Virus record (IMG/VR): IMGVR_UViG_3300021514_000002 | Coordinates: 288,001 to 352,000 of that record | Source: a virus | Taxonomy: Duplodnaviria; Caudoviricetes | Length of the DNA stretch: 64,000 nucleotides | Direction: 5' to 3' (one strand) | Shown here: positions 3,747 to 38,585 of the stretch, piece after piece | Numbering within the stretch: the first letter of the stretch is position 1 | Layout: each line of letters begins with the position of its first letter | Program-made: the position numbers and the translations under genes | The notes under the pieces: generated by a model | Told to the model about the DNA's origin: nothing | Seen by the model: only the letters and a program-made list of their open reading frames with translations | Databases searched by the model: none

Positions 3747-3775
3747 TTGACATAGTTTAAAAAGTGATATATACT
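3747..3775 (+). promoter_or_regulatory. Host sigma70-type promoter for gp55-47-46 operon
   Basis: TTGACA-17 bp-TATACT. Confidence 0.8.
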
Positions 3776-5415: not shown

Positions 5416-7707
5416 ATGATTAAATTTAAACAACTTTCAATTAAAAATTTTCTGTCATATGGCGAAGTTCCAACAATAATAGACCTTGACGATACGGGCA
5501 CTACGTTGATTGTAGGGGAAGATCTGGATAATACTGCATCTGGAACTGGGGCTAATGGCGTCGGGAAAACTGTATGGATAAATGCGCTTATCTACGGATT
5601 GTATGGCAAACCAATATCTAATATATCATTAGATAATCTCGTCAATAATATTAATAAGAAGAACATGGAAGTTATTATTGAATTTGAAAAAGATGGAAAT
5701 GTGTGTACTGTTAAACGTGCGCGCAAGATAACGGGTTCAGGTAACTATGCTAAAGTCTTTATCCGTCCATCTGGTACAGATTTAGATGAAAATAAGCACG
5801 ACAAGACACCAGATAGTATAAGCAATATAAATGATTTTATTGCCGAGCTACTTGGGATTCCCTATGAACTATTTGTTCGCATTGTTGCTTTTGCGGCAAC
5901 CCATACACCGTTCCTCGATTTACCTGTTAGACATGCGTCACAAGCAAATCAATCTGATATTATGGAAGAACTATTTAGACTAACACAATTGTCTGTTAAA
6001 GCAGAATCCCTTAAAGTTGAAATTAGGGATACTAAACAATCGTTAGAAATTAAAACTTTACATAATGAACATCTCGAAAAAGAACATGAGCGCCATAATA
6101 AACAATTACTATCTGCAAGAAATCGCGTAGATGATTGGGAAGATGACCGCGATGTTGAAGTGATTGCTCTAAAAAAAGTATTAGAAGATTATGAAGCTGT
6201 TCCTATTGAGGAACAAGAAAAACTATATGAGCGCGTTGCAGAATTAAAGATTACGCTTGCAGAAGAAAAAGAAAAACAACAGACCCTTGAAACGATTATT
6301 ACTGAAATTAGTGCAGAATTCACTGTATCAAAATCAAAGTTAGTGGTTATTACAGAAAGTAAAGAAAGAATTATAAAGTGGAAGGAAGAAAATATAAAGA
6401 AGATTGCTGATTATAAAGCAGCAGCTGAGAAACTTCCTACTGCATATGTACTTAGCGAACAACAAAAATTACATCAGAAACTAGATACTTTAACAGAAAA
6501 TTTAAAAACTCTTACGGCTAAAGAAAAAGAAATAGAAGGCGACATTACACTTACCACTAATGAGTTAAATGAAGCCGAAGATGAATTAGTACATCTAGAA
6601 GAAGCAAAATGTCCATATTGTTTACAACAACTTGAAGATGCTGCAGCGAAAATTAATAAATGTAAAGATGATATAAAAATTAAAGAACAAGAGTTGTTTA
6701 ATTTTTCAGTGCTTTTAGATGTTGTTCAAAAAAACATAGTAGTTACATCTAAGGATGTTAAAACAGTTTCCGATGATATTGATTATTCTATAAACGAAAT
6801 AAACAATTATGAATATACGCGCAATGAATACGTTGTAAAATTACAAGAGTTGTTTAATGAACAGTGTCCACATGGTAATGCTAAAACTGTAGGTGATATG
6901 ATTTCAGTTATTTCCGAAATGACCGAAGAAAATATGCACTTAAAAGAAACCCTTGCAAAAGAAGCCGACGGGTTAGTTGCGATTGACGATGTAATTGAAT
7001 TAATCAATAATGAATTAATAGAATGTGAAAGCAACATTACAATTTCATCCTTGAATGAATTATACGAAATAAAGAACAAAATTAAACAACAAAAAGATAA
7101 GATTAAAGAATTAAAATCTGCTATTAATCCATATCTTGCACCATTAAATGAGTTACTAGATATTAAACTGGAACCTATTGATATGGATGCAATTAATAAA
7201 CTAACTAACTTGATAACACATCAGAATTATTTAGTTAAATTATTAACCAAGAAAGATAGTTTCATTCGTAAAACATTGTTGACTAAAAACCTTGTATTTT
7301 TAAATCAACGATTAAAAGAATATCTATTAGCTTTGGGATTGCCACACAAGGTAGAATTTACCCATGAAATGACTGCAAACATATCACAATTTGGTAGAGA
7401 ATTGGATTTTGGGAACTTGTCTAGTGGACAAAAAGCGCGCGTAAATCTCGCGTTGTCTTTCTCGTTTAGGGACGTATTACAAAAATCACACGATAGTATT
7501 AATGTTTGTATGCTTGATGAAGTTCTTGACGTTGGCCTTGATTCGGTTGGCGTACAAAACGCAGCACGAATGCTGAAGCGCAAGGCACGTGATGAAGATT
7601 TGGCACTGTTCATTATTTCACACAGGGACGAAGTTAGTAATATATTCGACCGAAGAATGACAGTCCAAATGGAAAAAGGTTTCAGTTCTGTGAAGGTAGA
7701 AGAATAA
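5416..7707 (+). CDS. gp46: Recombination ATPase gp46 (Rad50/SbcC-like)
   Basis: Walker A NGVGKT, coiled coil with CPYC zinc hook, signature LSSGQ, Walker B MLDEVLD, H-loop ISH. Confidence 0.95.
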   Translation: MIKFKQLSIKNFLSYGEVPTIIDLDDTGTTLIVGEDLDNTASGTGANGVGKTVWINALIYGLYGKPISNISLDNLVNNINKKNMEVIIEFEKDGNVCTVKRARKITGSGNYAKVFIRPSGTDLDENKHDKTPDSISNINDFIAELLGIPYELFVRIVAFAATHTPFLDLPVRHASQANQSDIMEELFRLTQLSVKAESLKVEIRDTKQSLEIKTLHNEHLEKEHERHNKQLLSARNRVDDWEDDRDVEVIALKKVLEDYEAVPIEEQEKLYERVAELKITLAEEKEKQQTLETIITEISAEFTVSKSKLVVITESKERIIKWKEENIKKIADYKAAAEKLPTAYVLSEQQKLHQKLDTLTENLKTLTAKEKEIEGDITLTTNELNEAEDELVHLEEAKCPYCLQQLEDAAAKINKCKDDIKIKEQELFNFSVLLDVVQKNIVVTSKDVKTVSDDIDYSINEINNYEYTRNEYVVKLQELFNEQCPHGNAKTVGDMISVISEMTEENMHLKETLAKEADGLVAIDDVIELINNELIECESNITISSLNELYEIKNKIKQQKDKIKELKSAINPYLAPLNELLDIKLEPIDMDAINKLTNLITHQNYLVKLLTKKDSFIRKTLLTKNLVFLNQRLKEYLLALGLPHKVEFTHEMTANISQFGRELDFGNLSSGQKARVNLALSFSFRDVLQKSHDSINVCMLDEVLDVGLDSVGVQNAARMLKRKARDEDLALFIISHRDEVSNIFDRRMTVQMEKGFSSVKVEE

Positions 7708-7886
7708 TGGGAAACAACAACGAATCATATCGCATTGTGCAGGATTTTCAACTTATCAGTGTATCGCTTGTTGCTAATCCTGAAAAAGGGATGGAAATAC
7801 AAACTCTAATGGAACGCGACGTTAATATTCTCATAGATAAATACGATAGAACTATGAAATTATTGGAGATGTATATAAATGAATAA
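7707..7886 (+). CDS. 59 aa protein resembling a prohead-protease fragment, with YDRTMKLL motif (absent from ORF track)
   Basis: ATG overlaps the gp46 stop (TAATG) and the stop overlaps the next start. MGNNNESYRIVQDFQLISVSLVANPEKG...DKYDRTMKLLEMYINE. Confidence 0.7.
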   Translation: MGNNNESYRIVQDFQLISVSLVANPEKGMEIQTLMERDVNILIDKYDRTMKLLEMYINE

Positions 7887-8244
7887 CGTAGAAGCTGTTG
7901 ATTATATCAACCGTGCAAAACAAGCAATGACAAATGTAATGGAATTTTTTCTATTTGAACCGATAAATGATAATTTAATGGCACGAATGGAAACCGCCCT
8001 TGTTGGCGAATTAATTACCGAAATTGATATTGATTTTGGTGTTGATGTTAAATATGAAGACAATGATGTATGTGTGGTAGTTTCACTCGACGGAATTAAA
8101 GTTGATAAAGGAATTCTAGAAATTGAAGGACGTTATACAAACTGTCCAGCATTATTTGCGGAATTGGAAACGTTAGACGCTGCTATTGAGTTTACAGATA
8201 GTGAAAGTAATATCGCATTTGACAGGGCTATGGAAATAGTTTAA
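7879..8244 (+). CDS. Small protein resembling tail-sheath C-terminal domain, ends AFDRAMEIV
   Basis: YINR..FLFEP..LVGELI versus YIKR..FVFEP..FLGDLI in this phage's gp18; GGAG RBS. Confidence 0.7.
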   Translation: MNNVEAVDYINRAKQAMTNVMEFFLFEPINDNLMARMETALVGELITEIDIDFGVDVKYEDNDVCVVVSLDGIKVDKGILEIEGRYTNCPALFAELETLDAAIEFTDSESNIAFDRAMEIV

Positions 8245-8573
8245 TGAAATATTGGAGAGATTCAGAAGCCGAATATCTTGAATATGAAGAAGCTGGACGA
8301 ATACTACCGTATAAACATCCTGCTGCTATAGCAGCGTCTGAGGACATTCGTACAGAAGTAGAGATAATTCCTAATACTATGGAATTTCGTGACTACCTTG
8401 ATCCAACAACATTCGTTACTAGTTTACGGAAATGTGTTAAGGTAGAACGTAGGTTGTTTCGTTTTGGCAAAGACATGCTTGAACAAATTGCATGGATTCC
8501 ATTAGATATAATGGGTTACAAAGTACCACCTAATAAATTTGCGGCCTTTGAGCGCGCAATGGAGATTATATAA
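8244..8573 (+). CDS. Hypothetical protein, ends AFERAMEII
   Basis: 109 aa, TAATG-coupled to both neighbours; weak similarity to the gp23 C-terminus (DPTTF vs NPTTF). Confidence 0.7.
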   Translation: MKYWRDSEAEYLEYEEAGRILPYKHPAAIAASEDIRTEVEIIPNTMEFRDYLDPTTFVTSLRKCVKVERRLFRFGKDMLEQIAWIPLDIMGYKVPPNKFAAFERAMEII

Positions 8574-8869
8574 TGAACAATGAAATAGAAATTTCAATGT
8601 TAGATTTTACGAATATGTCGAGTGAAGATACGCATGTATTAATTAACGTGAATATTGGGGCAATGCCTCCTAAACGAGCGTACGATTATCTTGTCAATAT
8701 CAAAACAACACTTCCACTATGTAAGATGTTGAATGAAAGAGGTATCACCTATTCCCTGATTGGTTGTAGATCTGATGGGGCTGGTAATATTGTAACAAGT
8801 ATCGAATCTAATGATAATATTGTTGATACAGAAAATACAAAGTTTGATGACGCAATGAATATTGTTTAA
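8573..8869 (+). CDS. Small protein resembling a portal (gp20) fragment, ends KFDDAMNIV
   Basis: INVNIGAMPPKRAYDYLVNIK versus IDVGKMPPQRVKQYLEGIK, and RSDGAG versus RPDGRG, in this phage's portal. Confidence 0.75.
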   Translation: MNNEIEISMLDFTNMSSEDTHVLINVNIGAMPPKRAYDYLVNIKTTLPLCKMLNERGITYSLIGCRSDGAGNIVTSIESNDNIVDTENTKFDDAMNIV

Positions 8870-15843: not shown

Positions 15844-17472
15844 ATGACAGCAAAATGGACGGGATATTTTAAGGTTGTTTCACCGCAACCCTCTACAACC
15901 AAAATGACAGATAGCCAGGAAATGGCTGACTCTGGCGCGTACAACAACTATACATGGTATCAACGATTAGTACAAGGTTCCGCATCACGTATGACGCGGT
16001 ATCGTGAATATGATCTCATGGATAATGACATTGAAGTCGCGCGTGCACTTGATACTATCGCAGAAGAAATGACAGGGAATAATCCTAAAACAAAAGAACC
16101 TCTTATTCTTGATATTATGACAGAAGATGAAGACAATGTTGAAGGCATTGCGGTTCTTACGTTGAAGGCAGCATTACGACGTTGGGCACATTTGCACAAT
16201 TTTCCAAATCGTTTATATGCCATTGCACGCTTAACAATAAAATATGGCGATGTTTTTTTCCGCAAAGGAAAAAAACTAAATGATAAGTGGCAATTCATTC
16301 ATCCTAAAAATATAATTGCAGCCGTTGTTGATGAACATGATGCAACTAAAGTTTTGGCATGGCAGATGAAAAAAGATATAGAAAAACCAAGAACTGGTGG
16401 TTATGCTATGCCAATCGGCGCTAAAGAAGATTCTGCACATGAAAGTGAAATTGTTTCAACTAATGAACTTATTCGCTTTTCGTTAAACGATGATATGTCA
16501 GATACCCAACCATTTGGTGAATCTGTTCTACGTCCAGTTTATCGTTCACACAAACAAAAAGAATTATTGGAAGATGCTGTTATTATCTATCGTGTACAAC
16601 GTGCACCTGAGCGTCGTGTATTCTATATTGATGTTGGTAAGATGCCTCCACAGCGTGTTAAACAATACCTTGAAGGTATTAAGAATGAAATTAAACAAAA
16701 GAAAATCCCAACACAAAATGGTGGACAATCAGAAGTAGATTCCGTTTATAACCCACATTCAATGAGTGAAGATTTCTTTTTCGCGTCACGACCAGATGGT
16801 CGTGGTTCACGCGTTGAAACATTACCAGGTGGTCAAGGTCTTGGTGAATTATCCGATCTTGAATACTTCCAACGTAAAGTCTGGCGTGGTTTGAAAGTTC
16901 CAGTCTCTTATATGATAGAACAACAAGAAGGTGGCCAAGTCTGGAATGATGGTAAAGTCGGCATCGCATATATTCAGGAATTGCGTTTTTCATTATACGT
17001 AGAACGACTACAAGGTTATCTTGAAAGAACATTAGATGCTGAATTTAAAGAATTCTTACGCAAGACGAATATCCGCATTGATGAATCAATGTATCGTATT
17101 ATGCTTCCAGAACCTTCTAACTTTGGTAAGTACAAACAACTTGAATTAGATAGTCAGTTACTTAGTGCATATACAACTCCAGATGGAATTAGTTATATGT
17201 CTAAACGATTTGCAATGAAACGCTATTTACAAATGTCTGATGAAGAAATGATTACCAATGAACGGTTAAAGCGCGAAGAATTAGGTATTGATGCTGATAG
17301 TACAGATCCTGCCGACTTACAAGCAATCTATGGTGCACCAGAAGAAGGTGCCATGGGCGGCATGACAGGTGGCCTAGGTGGTGGATTTGGTGGTGCAGAA
17401 TTAGGCATGAGCGGTGAACCCGCAACCCCAGAAAGTGGCACTCCACCCGCTGCTGCAACGCCAACAACATAA
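15844..17472 (+). CDS. gp20: Portal vertex protein gp20
   Basis: LEDAVIIYRVQRAPERRVFYIDVGKMPP and EDFFF..R.DGRGSRVETLPGG; probable start MTAKW at 15844. Confidence 0.97.
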   Translation: MTAKWTGYFKVVSPQPSTTKMTDSQEMADSGAYNNYTWYQRLVQGSASRMTRYREYDLMDNDIEVARALDTIAEEMTGNNPKTKEPLILDIMTEDEDNVEGIAVLTLKAALRRWAHLHNFPNRLYAIARLTIKYGDVFFRKGKKLNDKWQFIHPKNIIAAVVDEHDATKVLAWQMKKDIEKPRTGGYAMPIGAKEDSAHESEIVSTNELIRFSLNDDMSDTQPFGESVLRPVYRSHKQKELLEDAVIIYRVQRAPERRVFYIDVGKMPPQRVKQYLEGIKNEIKQKKIPTQNGGQSEVDSVYNPHSMSEDFFFASRPDGRGSRVETLPGGQGLGELSDLEYFQRKVWRGLKVPVSYMIEQQEGGQVWNDGKVGIAYIQELRFSLYVERLQGYLERTLDAEFKEFLRKTNIRIDESMYRIMLPEPSNFGKYKQLELDSQLLSAYTTPDGISYMSKRFAMKRYLQMSDEEMITNERLKREELGIDADSTDPADLQAIYGAPEEGAMGGMTGGLGGGFGGAELGMSGEPATPESGTPPAAATPTT

Positions 17473-27083: not shown

Positions 27084-27503
27084 ATGAAGTTATTTGAAGT
27101 AATTGGATTCGAAGACAAAAAAACTGGTATGCCAACATACGATGATATGATGGCAGACCCAGATTATTTTGCACGTGCCAAGCGCAGAAAACATGGGATA
27201 GTGATGATGAGTCCTGATGAATATATTAATAAAGCCGTCAAAGGATTCAAGCAATCTGATCCAGATGCTACAGCTGAAAGCGTTATTAGAACAAGAGATC
27301 CTGACTTAATAAGTAAATATGCTAAGCAGATGCAAACAGGAGCTAAATTTCCTACTATAATGTTAGATTATTCAATTGGTTTTAGTCAAGAAGGATTGCA
27401 TCGTGCTCTTGCAGCTAAACAACTCGGATTAGATGAAATACCTGTTATGATAATTAGTATGACTAGACGTAGTGACAGAGGAACTAAAAGGGCATCGTAT
27501 TAA
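27084..27503 (+). CDS. ParB/Srx-like N-terminal domain protein
   Basis: FPTIML....QEGLHRALAAKQLG...IPV resembles the ParB (D/E)GxHR..A motif. Confidence 0.7.
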   Translation: MKLFEVIGFEDKKTGMPTYDDMMADPDYFARAKRRKHGIVMMSPDEYINKAVKGFKQSDPDATAESVIRTRDPDLISKYAKQMQTGAKFPTIMLDYSIGFSQEGLHRALAAKQLGLDEIPVMIISMTRRSDRGTKRASY

Positions 27504-29222
27504 ATGAATGATTATAAAAAAGTTAGTGACTCGTGTAATGGAACAATTGGTCCAGATTATAATTTAAACCCAGATGGTACTATTAATACTGCCGTGTCTG
27601 GAACACAAGCGTGCCCAACGATTCAAAACGATAGTCGCCGTTTGCCTGATCAAAGCGACGACCTTAGATGTAGACCGTTCCAATTAGAAAATGGAAAAAG
27701 TAATCAATATGTTGATCGTTTAGTCAATGAAGCATTGAACATTGGTGGTGCTACTTTAAACATTTATAAATTATTAGGAGTACATGAACAAGGTAAACTT
27801 GTGGATTGTACTGGTAGAGGTGAACCAATATCAAATGGTGATTTGCCTAATTTCCCTGCTAGTAATGCATTTGATAAGTACGTTACTGAATGGCGATCTA
27901 TTCAACGTGGTACGGGTGTTCTTGTGTCTACTTATATTGGTTATGATTTTGGTAATATTAAAACAACCAATGGCACAGAACGCGCCTATGGTATTAATAC
28001 ATCCATTTATAAACATGTCGCAACAATTGCAATTAAGCAAAGCGCACAACAATTACGTCGTGTAACGCGCGCAAGAATCGAGCGTTCCGATGATGGTATA
28101 AAATGGTATGGTGTTAATATTGTATTATTTCCAGATGATGATTGTTTGAATATTATACAATTTAAACATTCAGTGCCATCACGTTATTGGCGCATTCGTC
28201 CAATGGATTTCAATGGCGTCGATACTAATGATGTATGGGCAGTTCCTGCAATTCAAATGTTTCATAATTATACTGGCACAGACGAATATAATATTCAAGA
28301 TAAGGTGTTGTTGGAAAATAGAGATCGTGATTATTCTACCGATGTGATTTTATTAAAAGGATATTATGATTTAACCGATAACCTAAGCGAACTTACAGCA
28401 CTAGGTTTAGAAGTACCATCTATGACAATATACATAACAGTAAGTTTTTCTGCATGTGTAGCAGTACTTGGTCGCCCTCTTGTCGTAGGCGATATTATGG
28501 AAATTCCAAGTGAAGCACAATATTCAGCAGAAATGAAAAGAATTTTAAAATGGATGGAAGTCACAGACGTTTCTTGGGCAACAGAAGGGTATACTCCTGG
28601 ATGGCAACCAACGCTACTTCGTATAGTAGCACAGCCAGCATTTGTTTCACAAGAAACTCAAGACATATTTGGTGACCTTGGCGAAACGTTACCAGATGGG
28701 GTTGGCACAGTATCTGGTGAAGATGGTAAAAATCCTATCTACCAAGATTATTTTGATGTAAGTCAGACAATTGAAGCAGAAGCACGTGATGCTGTTCCTG
28801 AACGAGGAGCTGAAGGGTCAAGTACTATTAGGGCATGGGAAGAATCAGAGATAGAGGCCGCCACAGACAAAGGCGTAAACAATCTTCAAAAGATTGGACT
28901 AAATCCAACAGGATTATATGTTGAAGATGCGATGCCACCAAACAATTCACCGTTTACGGAAGGTGACGAATATGAGGCAAATCCAACCCATGGTGATTAT
29001 CATAGATTGACTTATTCTGGGTTAGCAGGCGATATACCTGCAAGATTATATCGTTATTCTTCATCTAAAGGACGGTGGATTTATTTAGAAACTGATTTGC
29101 GTGCGCAATATGATCCCGCCAAACCAACAATGAAAGAATTTATAGTAAGTCCTGATGCAGTACCAAATAACCAAATAACCAGAAACAGGGAAACTATCGA
29201 CAAGGATTGTGAGGAAACTTAA
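27504..29222 (+). CDS. gp14: Neck protein gp14-like with inserted discoidin (F5/8-C-like) domain
   Basis: LVNEAL.IGG..L.IYK is a gp14-like N-segment; AFD....W, IGYDFG, IERSDDGIKW, SRYWRI are discoidin-like; lies between gp13 and gp15. Confidence 0.7.
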   Translation: MNDYKKVSDSCNGTIGPDYNLNPDGTINTAVSGTQACPTIQNDSRRLPDQSDDLRCRPFQLENGKSNQYVDRLVNEALNIGGATLNIYKLLGVHEQGKLVDCTGRGEPISNGDLPNFPASNAFDKYVTEWRSIQRGTGVLVSTYIGYDFGNIKTTNGTERAYGINTSIYKHVATIAIKQSAQQLRRVTRARIERSDDGIKWYGVNIVLFPDDDCLNIIQFKHSVPSRYWRIRPMDFNGVDTNDVWAVPAIQMFHNYTGTDEYNIQDKVLLENRDRDYSTDVILLKGYYDLTDNLSELTALGLEVPSMTIYITVSFSACVAVLGRPLVVGDIMEIPSEAQYSAEMKRILKWMEVTDVSWATEGYTPGWQPTLLRIVAQPAFVSQETQDIFGDLGETLPDGVGTVSGEDGKNPIYQDYFDVSQTIEAEARDAVPERGAEGSSTIRAWEESEIEAATDKGVNNLQKIGLNPTGLYVEDAMPPNNSPFTEGDEYEANPTHGDYHRLTYSGLAGDIPARLYRYSSSKGRWIYLETDLRAQYDPAKPTMKEFIVSPDAVPNNQITRNRETIDKDCEET

Positions 29223-34066: not shown

Positions 34067-34513
34067 ATGGCAAGGAAAGGTATAAGAAAAGGATTATTCA
34101 CTCCAAGGCATCCTGGAAAGTATGTTGGTAATGTAAACAATATTGTTTACCGTTCTTCTTGGGAACTTTCCTTTATGAATTTTTTAGACAACAATACTAA
34201 CATAGAAAAATGGGGCTCTGAAATTATTGCTATTCCTTATCGCAAACCAACTACAGGCAGAATACACAAATACTATCCAGATTTTTGGATAAAATATAAA
34301 AGTAAGAACGGTAACGTAGTTCAAGAAGTTATTGAAGTTAAACCAGAGAAAGAAACCCGCCAACCTACCACTGTAGGTAAAACTAAAAAAACACAATTAT
34401 ATGAAGCTATTACATGGTCAATAAATAAAGCAAAGTTTAAATCGGCGGCTCTTTTTTGTACTAAGTATGGGATGAAGTTTAGAGTGTTAACCGAAAAACA
34501 TCTTTTTCATTAA
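34067..34513 (+). CDS. gp4: Head completion nuclease gp4 (TnsA-like)
   Basis: F.PRHPGKY.G....I.YRSSWE..FM..LD......W.SE...IPY......H.YYPDF....EVKP. Confidence 0.93.
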   Translation: MARKGIRKGLFTPRHPGKYVGNVNNIVYRSSWELSFMNFLDNNTNIEKWGSEIIAIPYRKPTTGRIHKYYPDFWIKYKSKNGNVVQEVIEVKPEKETRQPTTVGKTKKTQLYEAITWSINKAKFKSAALFCTKYGMKFRVLTEKHLFH

Positions 34514-34578: not shown

Positions 34579-35019
34579 ATGACTACTGACACTACTGAAG
34601 TTGAAATGATTATTGAACATCCATTAGAAGAAATATTTGATATTGAATCAGGTACGACGCTAATACCTCGTACGGAGAAAACTACAGAATTAGTAGCGGG
34701 AGAAGAATATGATGATAAAGATAAAGAAATTGAAGATCAGTTTCAAGAAGTATATGACCATGCCCTTTCCGCATTCGAAGATCAAGTAGCAGAAGCAGAA
34801 GTTATTGAAGGAAAATATAAAGCACGCAACATGGAAGTTGGTGTTCAGTTATTAAATACCGCCCTTGCCGCAGCAAAAGAAAAATCATCACTGAAACAAC
34901 ATAAAGATAAGACAGCACTCGCCAAAGGAAAACTTACAGGGAAAACGGTCAACCACAATAACCTCATTATAGCTGACCGCAACGAGTTATTAAAAACGTT
35001 GATGAATAAAAAAGATTAA
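34579..35019 (+). CDS. gp16: Terminase small subunit gp16 (putative)
   Basis: Helical; AR.MEV..QLLNT, NHNNLII..R.ELLK; upstream of the large terminase. Confidence 0.7.
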   Translation: MTTDTTEVEMIIEHPLEEIFDIESGTTLIPRTEKTTELVAGEEYDDKDKEIEDQFQEVYDHALSAFEDQVAEAEVIEGKYKARNMEVGVQLLNTALAAAKEKSSLKQHKDKTALAKGKLTGKTVNHNNLIIADRNELLKTLMNKKD

Positions 35020-36137
35020 TCTAATATTTTCATCGCAGATTCAAAAGCATCAGATATTAGTTCATCAACTTCAGTCATACTTTCAATATTATCCGATTCT
35101 TTTTTTTCTTCAATCTTAAATGTTATATCTTTTAGTTTCGGTAAGTTATCCAATGTTAATTCGTAATAATAGTTACATGGTTCTTTTGTGATTGTAGTTG
35201 TCGCACCATCTTCCGTAGTAATTGTTTCTGTCGGCTGATTAACGTATTTACCGTAGCGTGACATAAATGTTGCAAAAGGTGCAAAAGTATCAGGATCTAC
35301 TACAATCTGAGCCATTGTTGGAATATATGGTGCGTAAATGTAACCAGTATCAGTTTCACCATTACCGCCTTTATATCCAATAATAGTTTTACCATGTTCA
35401 AGTCCGAAATCACAATATACTTTTATAGAACCATACAATGTTCCAATGTATTCGATGTAGCCATAATCGTATTCATTAAGTGCTTGTGGTATAAAGTTGT
35501 TACTATTTTTTAGGATTTCTGCAACGGCTTCAGACGCGATTACAAAATTACCACAACCTCGACGTGATTTCCTTGCAATTGAATTTGCGCATGAACTTAT
35601 AGATATCCCAATCTTCACAATTTTATTTTGATCAATATCCTTACCATCCCCTACGATTTTTTCAACGTCAAGTGACGCTTTATGTGCAATCCCAGAAATA
35701 TCATTTCTAATTTCTTCGTATATTTCTTTGGCGATTTCTGTACAAGGATTTACTTTATCATCAAATACCCCTGCGTTTATATCTTCTAAGGCTTCAAGTG
35801 ATAAACGTGTTTCTAATTTTCGCGCCCCTGCTTCTACTGCTTGCGAATTTATAGTTAGACTAATTCTGGTACCTACGTTGTTTTCTTCGTCTATAGGTTC
35901 TTCGTCTGTTATTTCATATTCTAATGAAAATATTAATCCAACAGGCGCTGTCATTGGTTGCACCCCAACAAAATGTCTGACAGCTAGACTATCAATCACT
36001 TCTGATGTAATATTTCTAATCATGTCTGCGCTTGAACTTGCACCCATGCCCGCAACGCTTTCAAGATAATCGTCTGTATTTTTAAGCAATGTATCCTTAA
36101 TTATGTCTTTTGTCTGCTCTGTATCTACTACGTTCAT
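35016..36137 (-). CDS. Second gp23-like capsid protein paralogue, ends DAFESAMKILD
   Basis: VGVQPMT.PVGL, VEAG.RKL, IARK.RRG.GNF and GYKGGNGETDTGY are shared with gp23; start moved to ATG 36137 (GAGG RBS). Confidence 0.88.
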   Translation of the reverse strand: MNVVDTEQTKDIIKDTLLKNTDDYLESVAGMGASSSADMIRNITSEVIDSLAVRHFVGVQPMTAPVGLIFSLEYEITDEEPIDEENNVGTRISLTINSQAVEAGARKLETRLSLEALEDINAGVFDDKVNPCTEIAKEIYEEIRNDISGIAHKASLDVEKIVGDGKDIDQNKIVKIGISISSCANSIARKSRRGCGNFVIASEAVAEILKNSNNFIPQALNEYDYGYIEYIGTLYGSIKVYCDFGLEHGKTIIGYKGGNGETDTGYIYAPYIPTMAQIVVDPDTFAPFATFMSRYGKYVNQPTETITTEDGATTTITKEPCNYYYELTLDNLPKLKDITFKIEEKKESDNIESMTEVDELISDAFESAMKILD

Positions 36138-36153
36138 AATTCTATCCTCTTTC

Positions 36154-36227
36154 TCTTTATTTACTACTTTAAAAATTAGACATCCCAATAGATTGGTAAC
36201 CCAAAAATGTGTGGTAGTAAATAAAGA
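36154..36227. promoter_or_regulatory. Divergent promoter pair forming a perfect 14 bp inverted repeat
   Basis: GTAGTAAATAAAGA on both strands (36154-36167 minus, 36214-36227 plus), each with a late-promoter-like TAAATA core. Confidence 0.65.
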
Positions 36228-36228
36228 T

Positions 36229-37017
36229 ATGAAAAAAGAAATATTAAACGAATTACATGAACGACAGAACTTGCTAAATCTTGTGATAAATTCTGCAAGA
36301 GATCCGTCTTATTTTATAGAACACTATGCGAAGATACAACATCCAACAAAAGGTGCTGTTCCTTTTAAACCATATAAAAAACAAGAACAGTTGTTATATT
36401 CGTATCAGGAAAATCGTTGGAATATAACATTGGGTTCTAGGCAGACAGGAATCACTATAACTAATGCACTATACGCCTTCTGGTTTGCTATGTTTAAATC
36501 AGATAAAACTATAATGATTGCGGGTGAAAAGTTGCGACATTCTAAAGATATTTTACATAGTATTAGATTTGCGTATGAAAATTTACCCAAGTGGCTACAA
36601 GCCCGCAATAAATTAGTGATCAATAATAAATGTATGATGCAATTTGAAAATGGTACAAGGATTTTGGCGATAGCGCCGACTATATATGCAGTTAGAGGAT
36701 TTTCGGTCGATCTTATGATATTAGATTGTTTTGCATATATGTCACCAAATAAACAAGAAGAATTTTATACGTCACTATATCCTGCAACAATGGGTTCAAA
36801 AAATAGTGTAATGATTATGAGTTCGACTGGCGGCGGATATGACGGGGTATTTACCTCCATTTGGGATGATGCTTTGGCGAAAAAGAATAAATTCGTGGCA
36901 AACTTTATTAAATGGAATGATGTACCTGAACGGGATGATGGGTTCAAGGATTCAATGGTTTCCATGCTTGGAGAAACACGATGGAAAGTGGAGTATGAAT
37001 GCTCTTTTGATAATTAA
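36229..37017 (+). CDS. Terminase ATPase-domain paralogue with degenerate Walker motifs
   Basis: Collinear with the N-terminal half of gp17; SRQTGIT (vs ARQTGKS) and MILDCFA (vs LFLDEFA); stops right after EYEC, so it has no nuclease domain. Confidence 0.85.
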   Translation: MKKEILNELHERQNLLNLVINSARDPSYFIEHYAKIQHPTKGAVPFKPYKKQEQLLYSYQENRWNITLGSRQTGITITNALYAFWFAMFKSDKTIMIAGEKLRHSKDILHSIRFAYENLPKWLQARNKLVINNKCMMQFENGTRILAIAPTIYAVRGFSVDLMILDCFAYMSPNKQEEFYTSLYPATMGSKNSVMIMSSTGGGYDGVFTSIWDDALAKKNKFVANFIKWNDVPERDDGFKDSMVSMLGETRWKVEYECSFDN

Positions 37018-37028
37018 GGAAGATTATA

Positions 37029-38585
37029 ATGGCGCGCGCAAAGAATGATAAGTTAAAAACCCCCGATCAGGAAGTTGAATTTACATATGAACAGGTACAA
37101 GAGCTAAAGCGTTGTGTTCAAGATCCTATTTACTTTATAGAAAATTACGTTCAAATACAACATCCCGTTAAGGGTGCCGTTCCCTTTCGGTTATATCCAT
37201 ATCAAAAAAATATGATTCGTGCATATCAAGATAACCGTTACACTGTAGTACTTTCTGCACGTCAAACTGGTAAATCTATAACATCCGCCGCCTACCTTCT
37301 TTGGTATGCAATGTTCCAGTTTGATAAAACCGTCCTGATTGCAGCCAATAAAAACGCAAATGCAATGGAAATGATTTTACGTATTCGTTTTGCATATGAA
37401 AATCTTCCAATGTGGTTGAAAGCTGGCGTTAAAGACGATGGTTGGAATAAACATGAAATTGGCTTTGATAATGGTTCCCGTATCGTGTCAACCGCAACAT
37501 CGGAAGATTCTGGTCGTGGTATGGCTATTTCACTTTTGTTCCTTGACGAATTTGCATTTGTAAAACCTAATATCCAAGATGAATTTTGGACATCAATAGC
37601 ACCTACATTATCAACTGGTGGTTCGTGTATAATGACATCAACGCCTAATGGTGACATGAATATTTATGCTCAGGTTTGGCGCGGTTCGCAAATGGGTACT
37701 AATGGATTTTTCCCTATACATGTTAAATGGGACGAACCCCCAGGCAGAGATGGTAAGTTTAAAGAGGAGGAAACTGGAAGGATTGGTGTCCGTCGTTGGC
37801 AACAAGAATATGAATGTGTCTTTTTGTCATCAGATTCATTGCTTATTGATTCGTTATTTCTTACGAACCTAACGCCGTTAATTGAAGCAATCGTTCCTAA
37901 GCTTACTGTAAACGATGTTGTTTTGTTTGATGAAATAAAACCAGCAAATACATATTTACTGGGTGTCGATCCTGCTACTGGCAGTGGTGAAGATTATAGT
38001 GTTATCACTATATTTGAATTTCCGTCAATGACTCAGGTTGGTGAATATCGTAGTAATACAATGTCCACAAATGATTTATATGGTGTTATGAAAAATATAT
38101 TAAAACATATAGAATCAAAAGGAGCGATGGTATATTTCTCAATAGAAAATAACGGCGTTGGTCAGGGATTAATTGCATTATATGAAGCTGATGAAGAGCC
38201 ATTAAAACTTGCTGAGTTTGTTTCAGAAGACGGCAAGAATAAATTAGGATTCACAACAACAGCACGTAGTAAAATGCGCTCGTGTGTTAACCTGAAAGAA
38301 ATGCTTGAAAAAGAAAATATGCATATTACTTCAAGAATCCTTTTATCTGAATTAAAGTCTTATGTTCGTTCACGTGGTGCATATGCAGCGCAAGCAGGTG
38401 CAACAGATGATTGTATAGCTGCAACGCTTATTGTACTTAGATTAGTAGAAGAGATCGCGGCGTATGAGCAGGCGGCGTTTGATAAACTATATGCAGGCGA
38501 TTATGATGAATGGAAGCAATCAGACTGGGATGGATATGAAGAAGGATACGATGAAAACGACGAGGGATTGCCTAGTATATTTTAA
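37029..38585 (+). CDS. gp17: Terminase large subunit gp17
   Basis: ARQTGKS, LFLDEFAF, TSTPNG, LGVDPATG.G.DYS, DDC..A. Confidence 0.97.
   Translation: MARAKNDKLKTPDQEVEFTYEQVQELKRCVQDPIYFIENYVQIQHPVKGAVPFRLYPYQKNMIRAYQDNRYTVVLSARQTGKSITSAAYLLWYAMFQFDKTVLIAANKNANAMEMILRIRFAYENLPMWLKAGVKDDGWNKHEIGFDNGSRIVSTATSEDSGRGMAISLLFLDEFAFVKPNIQDEFWTSIAPTLSTGGSCIMTSTPNGDMNIYAQVWRGSQMGTNGFFPIHVKWDEPPGRDGKFKEEETGRIGVRRWQQEYECVFLSSDSLLIDSLFLTNLTPLIEAIVPKLTVNDVVLFDEIKPANTYLLGVDPATGSGEDYSVITIFEFPSMTQVGEYRSNTMSTNDLYGVMKNILKHIESKGAMVYFSIENNGVGQGLIALYEADEEPLKLAEFVSEDGKNKLGFTTTARSKMRSCVNLKEMLEKENMHITSRILLSELKSYVRSRGAYAAQAGATDDCIAATLIVLRLVEEIAAYEQAAFDKLYAGDYDEWKQSDWDGYEEGYDENDEGLPSIF

Follow-up and report, generated by a model that had tools for sequence, protein, structure and literature searches.

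Protein P0001, 98 residues long, is encoded in a stretch of 64,000 nucleotides (the window) and resembles a part of the portal protein of the phage that carries it. The window corresponds to bases 288,001-352,000 of a single 363,531-bp contig of 36% G+C (IMG/VR record IMGVR_UViG_3300021514_000002). Its source is an uncultured deep-sea jumbo myophage with T4-type core genes, among which portal, gp23-type capsid protein, sheath, tube, gp15 and the large terminase TerL were identified. The closest cultured relatives were Xanthomonas phages Xoo-sp13 and XacN1, whose portals are 52-53% identical to that of this phage. DNA of the phage was present in a hydrothermal-vent metagenome, and partial matches were recorded in vent, cold-seep and marine-sediment samples.

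The open reading frame (ORF) of P0001, previously claimed from the letters of the window without database searches (hereafter the sequence-only reading), proved genuine. It starts with an ATG preceded, 8 bases 5', by a GGAG ribosome site (8561-8564), and it overlaps the stop codon of the gene before it by a single base (TAATG), which couples the two translationally. The three small genes upstream are organized likewise, all four being coupled by overlap to one another and to a Rad50-like gene. The operon runs from 3784 through a Mre11-like and the Rad50-like gene to these four mini genes (the cassette), and its promoter, together with the other features, is listed in Table 1. The T4-type late-promoter motif TATAAATA did not occur between 3.6 and 10 kb of the window; it was found directly 5' of several virion genes (17498, 22612, 23296, 30027 and 32650). 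From these motifs we infer early or middle expression of the operon and, since it lies behind a promoter of the sigma-70 type, P0001 is probably produced ahead of the late virion proteins.

Homology of the mini-protein to the portal clip

Pairwise BLASTP aligned residues 26-57 of P0001 with residues 284-315 of the portal (11 of 32 identical, E 5e-5), and in six-frame searches of the 363-kb genome the two proteins were reciprocal best non-self matches (E 0.011 and 0.18). At the profile level, a hidden Markov model (HMM) of the 41-member family to which P0001 belongs was run against the 3,415 ORFs from six-frame translation of the genome and, apart from P0001, matched the portal alone (E 2.5e-6). 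Comparison of the family with an alignment of 26 portals by hhalign gave a probability of 96.5% (E 9.5e-10) over 26 columns, in which residues 23-48 face portal residues 281-306, encoded at 16618-16695. This is a comparison of the HHpred type, on which the sequence-only reading had beforehand made the refutation of its claim depend in part, and it recovered the portal. Likewise, Portal_T4 (PF07230) was the only Pfam family matched by more than one member (7 of 41, with local matches, best E 7.3e-6). Member P0044 had 16 of 25 residues identical to the portal of the P0001 phage, and the longer member P0034 was collinear with portal residues 281-377 (E 3e-12). Searched against 50,697 GenBank phage records, P0034 matched 74 of them (best E 4e-8), and all 30 of the matches listed were portal genes or unannotated genes in portal position. 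Portal residues are numbered here from TTG 15778, where the listed ORF (564 residues) begins; the likely start is ATG 15844 (542 residues), which fits the database entry (542 residues) and close homologues (542-550 residues).

The clip tip motif V-G-K-M-P-P-x-R-V-x-x-Y-L, with helix alpha-6, is present in the mini-protein. Residues G29, M31, P32, P33, R35, Y39 and L40 of P0001 coincided with invariant or near-invariant portal columns, and family counts for these columns were 36 (G29), 38 (M31), 32 (P32), 31 (P33), 24 (R35) and 33 (Y39) of 41. The first of two alignments with gp20 proposed by the sequence-only reading therefore holds beyond chance, as BLASTP, the reciprocal matches, the HMM and hhalign agree, and the portal coordinates given with the two alignments (16611-16683 and 16789-16824) were correct. 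The second (CRSDGAGNIVTSI with SRPDGRGSRVETL) was reported by neither BLASTP nor hhalign. It is a chance resemblance, because P0034, which carries both VGVRSD and, later, the true KVETLPGG, places the CRSDG-type stretch on the hairpin after helix alpha-6, in alignment with portal residues 309-321. What had been described as two separated portal motifs joined in a tiny protein is thus a single, uninterrupted copy of the clip's initial portion. Of the 'stem/clip region' named at the same time, the clip stood, limited to first strand, tip, helix and hairpin, and the stem did not. The inner clip loop and the channel loop (K-V-E-T-L-P-G-G) are missing from the 98-residue protein and come later in P0034. 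P0001 also fell below the gathering score of PF07230 and lacks wing, stem and crown, so that it is not a portal. Judged by sequence, it was shown to be a soluble protein that reproduces, on its own, the beginning of the portal clip (strand, exposed G-x-M-P-P-x-R tip loop, alpha-6 and hairpin) within a small alpha/beta domain, to which a flexible acidic linker attaches the C-terminal peptide.

Two AlphaFold models of the mini-protein reached predicted local distance difference test (pLDDT) scores of 65.6 and 73.0. AlphaFold2 run with 41 sequences (pLDDT 73, core 87-89) predicted two strands, a kinked helix, a hairpin and a disordered linker, and the second model forms one small alpha/beta domain. 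Foldseek searches of the PDB with both models returned nothing at E <=0.001, with no portal among the matches listed. VIA-align comparison of both with 48,161 chains returned generic two-layer alpha/beta domains (best Z 5.0 and 5.5) and no portal, and a structure search of the ESM Atlas with the mini-protein gave nothing informative. The superposition on the portal that had been anticipated from an AlphaFold model was therefore not obtained. This mismatch neither supports nor excludes descent from a portal, because the clip in the ring is an intertwined piece and not a free domain. No portal counterpart was detected for residues 1-20 of P0001; the strand added there may replace that of the neighbouring subunit, and a clip sheet completed from within would explain how a piece of a ring came to be stable as a monomer.

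Table 1. Positions of the parts of P0001 and of related features (window coordinates unless stated otherwise).
Feature	Position	Strand	Basis or remark
P0001 ORF, stop included	8573..8869	+	ORF list, homologues, GGAG
P0001 residues 1-20, family-specific N-terminal strand (M-x-K-x-I-E-V-E-x-L-D-L)	8573..8632	+	Family alignment; strand E5-10 in second AlphaFold model
P0001 residues 23-48, portal-derived strand, tip loop (G-x-M-P-P-x-R), helix alpha-6	8639..8716	+	hhalign, HMM
P0001 residues 27-50, equivalent of T4 gp20 288-311	8651-8722	+	Alignment to solved gp20
P0001 residues 49-78, helix extension (LCKMLNE) and beta-hairpin with CRSDG	8717..8806	+	Equals portal hairpin 309-333 via P0034
P0001 residues 79-90, acidic/polar linker of family-variable length	8807..8842	+	pLDDT <50 for 82-90; gap-rich columns
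P0001 residues 91-98, C-terminal tag F-D-D-A-M-N-I-V	8843..8866	+	Tag HMM
Small tagged gene, 59 residues	7707-7886	+	Overlaps Rad50-like gene ending at 7707
Small tagged gene, 121 residues	7879-8244	+	Weakly like sheath C-terminal domain; overlaps next gene
Small tagged gene, 109 residues	8244-8573	+	Overlaps P0001
Sigma-70-like promoter (TTGACA, 17 nt, TATACT; 11/12)	3747..3775	+	Consensus match, heads operon
Portal (T4 gp20 family)	15844..17472	+	Pfam PF07230 E 7.7e-91; PDB alignment
gp23 capsid paralogue, 373 residues	35016..36137	-	Pfam Gp23 E 2.3e-53; 38-residue C-terminal extension ending in tag
Large terminase TerL, 518 residues; candidate partner of clip tip	37029..38585	+	Pfam Terminase_6N, Terminase_6C
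Tag-bearing ORFs, window	7707-8869; 35016-36137(-)		Tag HMM/motif
Tag-bearing ORFs, genome	About 65.4-65.9, 83.5-84.3, 124.7, 134.1, 135.9, 147.5, 223.3 kb		
P0008, 435-residue chimera, beyond window	Genome 223295-224602 (L002:5299-6603)	-	Sheath, capsid, portal pieces and tag

The mini-portal family and its shared C-terminal tag

The mini-portal family comprises about 40 sequence clusters, from metagenomes only. A word-indexed search gave two homologues of 103 residues, 50-51% identical to P0001; their surroundings follow the same order as those of P0001 (Mre11, Rad50, small genes, RuvC, Zn-ribbon, helicase). Searching 1.84 billion representatives with a profile then yielded 43 proteins at E <=0.001, of which 38 were small (95-212 residues); the family alignment, HMM and column counts are based on 41 members. 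The layout consists of an N-terminal strand, a portal-like core (h-V-h-I-x-V-x-V-G-K-M-P-P-x-R-h-x-x-Y-L ... L-C-x-x-L-x-x-x-G-I-x-Y), a linker of variable length and a C-terminal peptide, all conserved except the linker. That P0001 might be a decaying, functionless partial duplicate of the portal, or resemble it by chance, was already disfavoured and appears highly improbable. Such an origin would suit the mere 26 columns aligned at the profile level and the generic alpha/beta sandwich of the predicted fold. It is at odds with 43 proteins at this threshold and 38 small members having a common core and tail, intact ORFs and kept synteny, with profile E-values of 1e-6 to 1e-10, and with the retention in 38 of 41 members of the methionine that matches T4 M292.

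In public libraries, P0001 had no Pfam match at E <=1 and the family none in NCBIfam. Among GenBank phages, neither tblastn with P0001 and P0023 nor blastn with the locus produced a match, and a mini-portal pattern scan of IMG/VR gave none either. Against the whole XacN1 and Xoo-sp13 records the family profile found portal genes only, the mini-portal family being absent from both. PHROG entry phrog_23805, a 72-position profile with no function assigned, was matched weakly by P0001 (E 0.016), by four family members at E <=0.01 (best 1.1e-4) and by portal residues 277-309 (E 0.18), all of which fall short of any safe threshold. Between two relatives, cassette genes were 38-54% identical, against 66-80% for the flanking Rad50, RuvC and helicase genes, and cassette gene content varied among relatives; by this comparison, they behave as accessory genes.

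The C-terminal peptide, or tag, has the consensus [FY]-[DEA]-x-[AS]-M-[EK]-h-h and was present in 28 of the 41 family members, P0001 included. A motif search of the genome with [FY]-[DEN]-x-[AS]-M-[EKN]-h-h gave 11 six-frame matches, 10 of them at the very end of an ORF. With the tag HMM, the top 14 genome ORFs all displayed it at most 9 residues from the stop, and beyond these both scores and positions were random. The tag is borne, among others, by the products of the four cassette genes, by small proteins rich in cysteine, by a gp23 paralogue and by the chimera P0008. A plan of domain, flexible variable linker and terminal peptide is common to 14 otherwise unrelated proteins. No recognised replication or virion protein of the genome bears the tag, nor does any authentic virion protein within the window.

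Several interpretations of the tag were rejected. A by-product of a Shine-Dalgarno for the next gene (ATG-GAG embedded in A-M-E) does not explain why the tag persists where no gene follows directly, as in the final gene of the cassette (AMNIV) and in its homologues; moreover, the tag reaches upstream to F-D and is also present in other phages and on genes unlinked to the cassette. A sliding-clamp or neck-arm type of motif was set aside on the absence of the tag from replication and virion proteins of the genome. The 0-9 variable residues that come after the tag make a carboxy-terminal degron unlikely. Like the T4 capsid-targeting sequence (CTS) or the cargo peptide of encapsulins, the tag is a short terminal peptide found on unrelated proteins behind a flexible linker; unlike it, the T4 CTS is N-terminal and cleaved off.

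Partial copies of other virion proteins were found among the tagged genes. P0008 combines a sheath C-terminal domain (residues 185-288, E 3.3e-21 against the phage's own sheath), a gp23 capsid fragment (residues 309-332, E 0.0032) and the inner clip, channel loop and stem helix of the portal (residues 336-390 against portal 332-383, E 1.3e-15). The tagged gp23 paralogue lacks part of the gp23 fold; another gp23-like ORF was seen at genome 24228-25139 (-). A 178-kb relative (L018:5598-7197) displayed five consecutive tagged mini genes between Rad50 and RuvC, in which a separate gene of 78 residues, copying stem helix alpha-7 of the portal (Portal_T4 matched weakly in Pfam), immediately follows the clip copy. 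In locus L007 of another relative, a capsid C-terminal fragment gene (1-231, with the stretch G-Y-F-Y-A-P-Y-I-P-L-M) lies directly 5' of the mini-portal P0034. Within the P0001 cassette, likeness to virion proteins was weak or not detectable for the other three genes. P0004 (7879-8244) weakly matched the sheath C-terminal domain (518-585, including F-E-P-x-N-D; E 0.55), the same one copied by P0008, and its homologues in L001 and L018 keep the F-E-P-x-N-D stretch; BLASTP gave no alignment of P0003 with capsid or of P0005 with protease. The four coupled tagged genes, the L018 and L007 arrangements and P0008 fit a collection of mimics better than a packaging factor.

The clip tip as a recognition surface

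Alignment to solved gp20 (T4 number equals the number of this portal plus 3) reproduced the residues named in PMC4493910, i.e. N291, M292, R295, K296, R338, K342 and T349. The T4 gp20 clip consists of residues 279-358, with three strands and helix alpha-6, and its tip residues N291, M292, R295 and K296 face the terminase gp17 (PMC4493910). Packaging was abolished in the double mutants N291A-M292A and R295A-K296A, and M292I was cold-sensitive (PMC4493910). A synthetic 24-residue peptide, gp20 288-311, is reported to bind gp17 and to inhibit packaging in vitro (PMC4493910, citing Lin, Rao and Black 1999). Mini-protein residues 27-50 are the equivalent of this peptide, comprising clip tip and helix alpha-6. 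The statement of the sequence-only reading that the copied region contacts terminase is thus anatomically right for these gp17-facing clip residues, the stem being again excepted. The best-kept exposed residues of the family were M31 and R35, counterparts of T4 M292 and K296, and outward-facing helix positions varied. Co-folding of TerL with the mini-protein scored 0.00, a result counted neither for nor against binding.

The same surface is engaged by other proteins. In T4, the C-terminal arm of the neck adaptor gp13 docks on it (PMC12929587), and in SPbeta a mutant-supported model has SpbK, a defence protein, binding to the clip helix (PMC12847820). Avs, RAZR and SpbK sensors are triggered by portal, capsid and many other core virion proteins (10.64898/2026.01.04.697583; PMC13017515; PMC12847820).

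Compared with the T4 gp20 clip, the mini-protein has strand, tip and alpha-6 in common and conserves the residues matching M292 and K296, and its predicted strand, helix and hairpin fit a clip of three strands and one helix. It differs in being a natural, separate protein and not a subunit of a dodecamer (524 residues) or a synthetic peptide. Further differences are the lack of inner clip loop, channel loop, stem, wing and crown, and the addition of an N-terminal strand, a longer helix and a C-terminal tag; its terminase binding is putative. What the family conserves (G-K-M-P-P-x-R ... Y-L) defines the minimal recognition element of the T4-type clip.

Candidate functions of the clip copy

Competition of the mini-protein for terminase or for Avs4-like sensors, either target being putative, is plausible. 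We favour, at a probability of roughly 35%, the reading of P0001 as a trigger decoy for sensors of the host, acting by molecular mimicry. As a monomer, the mini-protein would display the recognition surface of the portal and thereby occupy clip-binding proteins, the likeliest being host defence sensors that detect the portal protein. It could bind the sensor but would lack what activation requires, be it the twelve-fold ring or the full fold. Other virion proteins would be mimicked likewise by the products of the neighbouring tagged genes and by the sheath/capsid/portal chimera, and the tail that they share would dock them onto a single common partner. Ranked first, the decoy also covers the occurrence, in tagged form, of buried portal, capsid and sheath parts, together with the chimera, the fast evolution and the early promoter. 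More tentatively, the whole array of small, early, tagged partial copies of virion proteins might be an unrecognised counter-defence or assembly-control system, whose tag hands complexes to a common partner for sequestration or destruction; equally tentatively, the 98-residue clip copy would be its portal-specific member.

To our knowledge, DSAD1, which acts against DSR2, is not a copy of the tail tube protein. As a competitive anti-defence protein that blocks recognition of the trigger (PMC11087589), it offers the logic proposed here, that of a small phage protein countering a sensor of a virion protein, and it is proteins of this kind, or the T4 clip peptide, that P0001 would most resemble in its working; P0001 differs in being homologous to the trigger itself and in carrying a shared tag. 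In the SpbK-YonE pair of B. subtilis SPbeta, the element corresponding to our copy is the very clip helix bound by SpbK in the mutant-supported model (PMC12847820). Portals are recurrent defence triggers for Avs4 and Avs11 (10.64898/2026.01.04.697583) and for RAZR (PMC13017515). SpbK and RAZR sense assembled rings and Avs4 senses portal 'folds' by direct binding; the target sensor of the mini-protein is putative. The Avs, RAZR and SpbK papers (10.64898/2026.01.04.697583, PMC13017515, PMC12847820) describe no phage-encoded copy of a trigger. A term search of EVADES (268 anti-defence proteins, 10.1101/2025.06.06.658234) found no virion-trigger protein mimic; in the passages shown, 'decoy' applied only to the Panoptes defence system and 'mimic' to DNA mimics. 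Family and tag appear new, no such virion-trigger-copying phage protein having been found in the literature and libraries searched.

Several points weigh against a decoy. Avs-type sensors are described as using extended, shape-complementary interfaces (10.64898/2026.01.04.697583), and because of this extension a copy of 26 residues may not bind them. A mimic that does bind could trigger the sensor and not block it. Moreover, the tag has no explained role in a decoy, both the sensor and its binding are putative, and the timing of expression is derived from promoter motifs alone. The predicted folds that Foldseek and VIA-align could not match to any portal structure, and the faint or undetectable likeness of the three other cassette genes to virion proteins, count on the same side.

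In the main rival reading, the copy would instead bind the portal-docking surface of TerL, be it that of its own phage or of a co-infecting relative, and so delay, tune or block docking. This is the only proposal with an experimental precedent, as residues 27-50 correspond exactly to the T4 peptide reported to bind gp17 and inhibit packaging, and M31 and R35 match T4 M292 and K296, whose mutation abolishes or cold-sensitises packaging. We nevertheless regard it as doubtful. Inhibiting its own packaging would require an additional, hypothetical control step, and TerL and the portal clip are highly conserved in relatives whereas the mini-proteins diverge fast and vary at exposed helix positions. 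Tagged copies of a buried stem helix, of capsid and of sheath cannot act on TerL, which leaves the other mimics unexplained. A role in assembly or inside the virion, in which the tail would be a peptide targeting the head or portal vertex in the manner of encapsulin cargo, was also considered; the proteins would be loaded into proheads or would cap assembly surfaces against premature polymerisation. Every detectable mimic piece indeed derives from self-assembling virion proteins, and the domain-linker-tail plan recurs in the 14 otherwise unrelated proteins, one being a capsid paralogue. Yet the operon looks early and not late, the tail is borne by no authentic virion protein in the window, and the genes evolve fast and vary in content, all of which makes such a role unlikely.

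Golz and Kemper are said to have reported in 1999 that T4 endonuclease VII associates with gp20. By analogy, the clip copy could be a partner of the neighbouring RuvC-type resolvase, binding it, withholding it from the packaging site or delivering it there. In 5 of the 7 contexts examined, the mini-portal has a RuvC-like gene a few genes away at most (in one of them reversed, with RuvC upstream). This adjacency may be inherited synteny, because all contexts come from related phages. In L015 and L016 a Zn-ribbon gene lies directly downstream and no RuvC was called, the upstream gene being cut by the contig end, and the 159-residue downstream gene of L017 has no RuvC Pfam match on record. With tag and other mimics also left unexplained, a partnership with RuvC is very unlikely. 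In L007, the RuvC-like gene (1391-1890) is split into ORFs of 124 and 42 residues, a break that may reflect a frameshift or faulty assembly.

Portal, capsid, sheath and terminase proteins are the main molecular patterns detected by bacterial immune sensors, and how phages escape such detection without altering these essential proteins is an open question. If P0001 is a decoy, tagged partial copies of a phage's own triggers would be a new principle of escape, comparable to the pseudosubstrates of eukaryotic viruses, and would furnish a natural toolkit for probing the binding surfaces of sensors. If its target is terminase, it would be the first natural protein inhibitor or regulator working by copying the portal docking site. 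Under either reading, the shared C-terminal peptide gives a direct route to finding the partner of the tag.

Additional observations concern the portal and terminase genes and their surroundings. Candidate neck proteins are encoded at 27084-27503 and 27504-29222. In related phages, several portal genes are 700-980 residues long with intein domains (PF14890), and several TerL genes are 850-885 residues long with LAGLIDADG/intein domains (PF14528); portal and TerL of the P0001 phage are intein-free. Directly 5' of TerL, a 304-residue protein (36103-37017, +) displayed a weak Terminase_6N match (E 7e-4, under the cut-off) and may be a paralogue of the TerL ATPase in the expected place of the small terminase. 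Between the tail genes and the tagged capsid paralogue lies a gene for a nuclease of TnsA-like/endonuclease I type (34067-34513, +; PF08722, E 8e-20), which may be a mobile or homing-type insertion.

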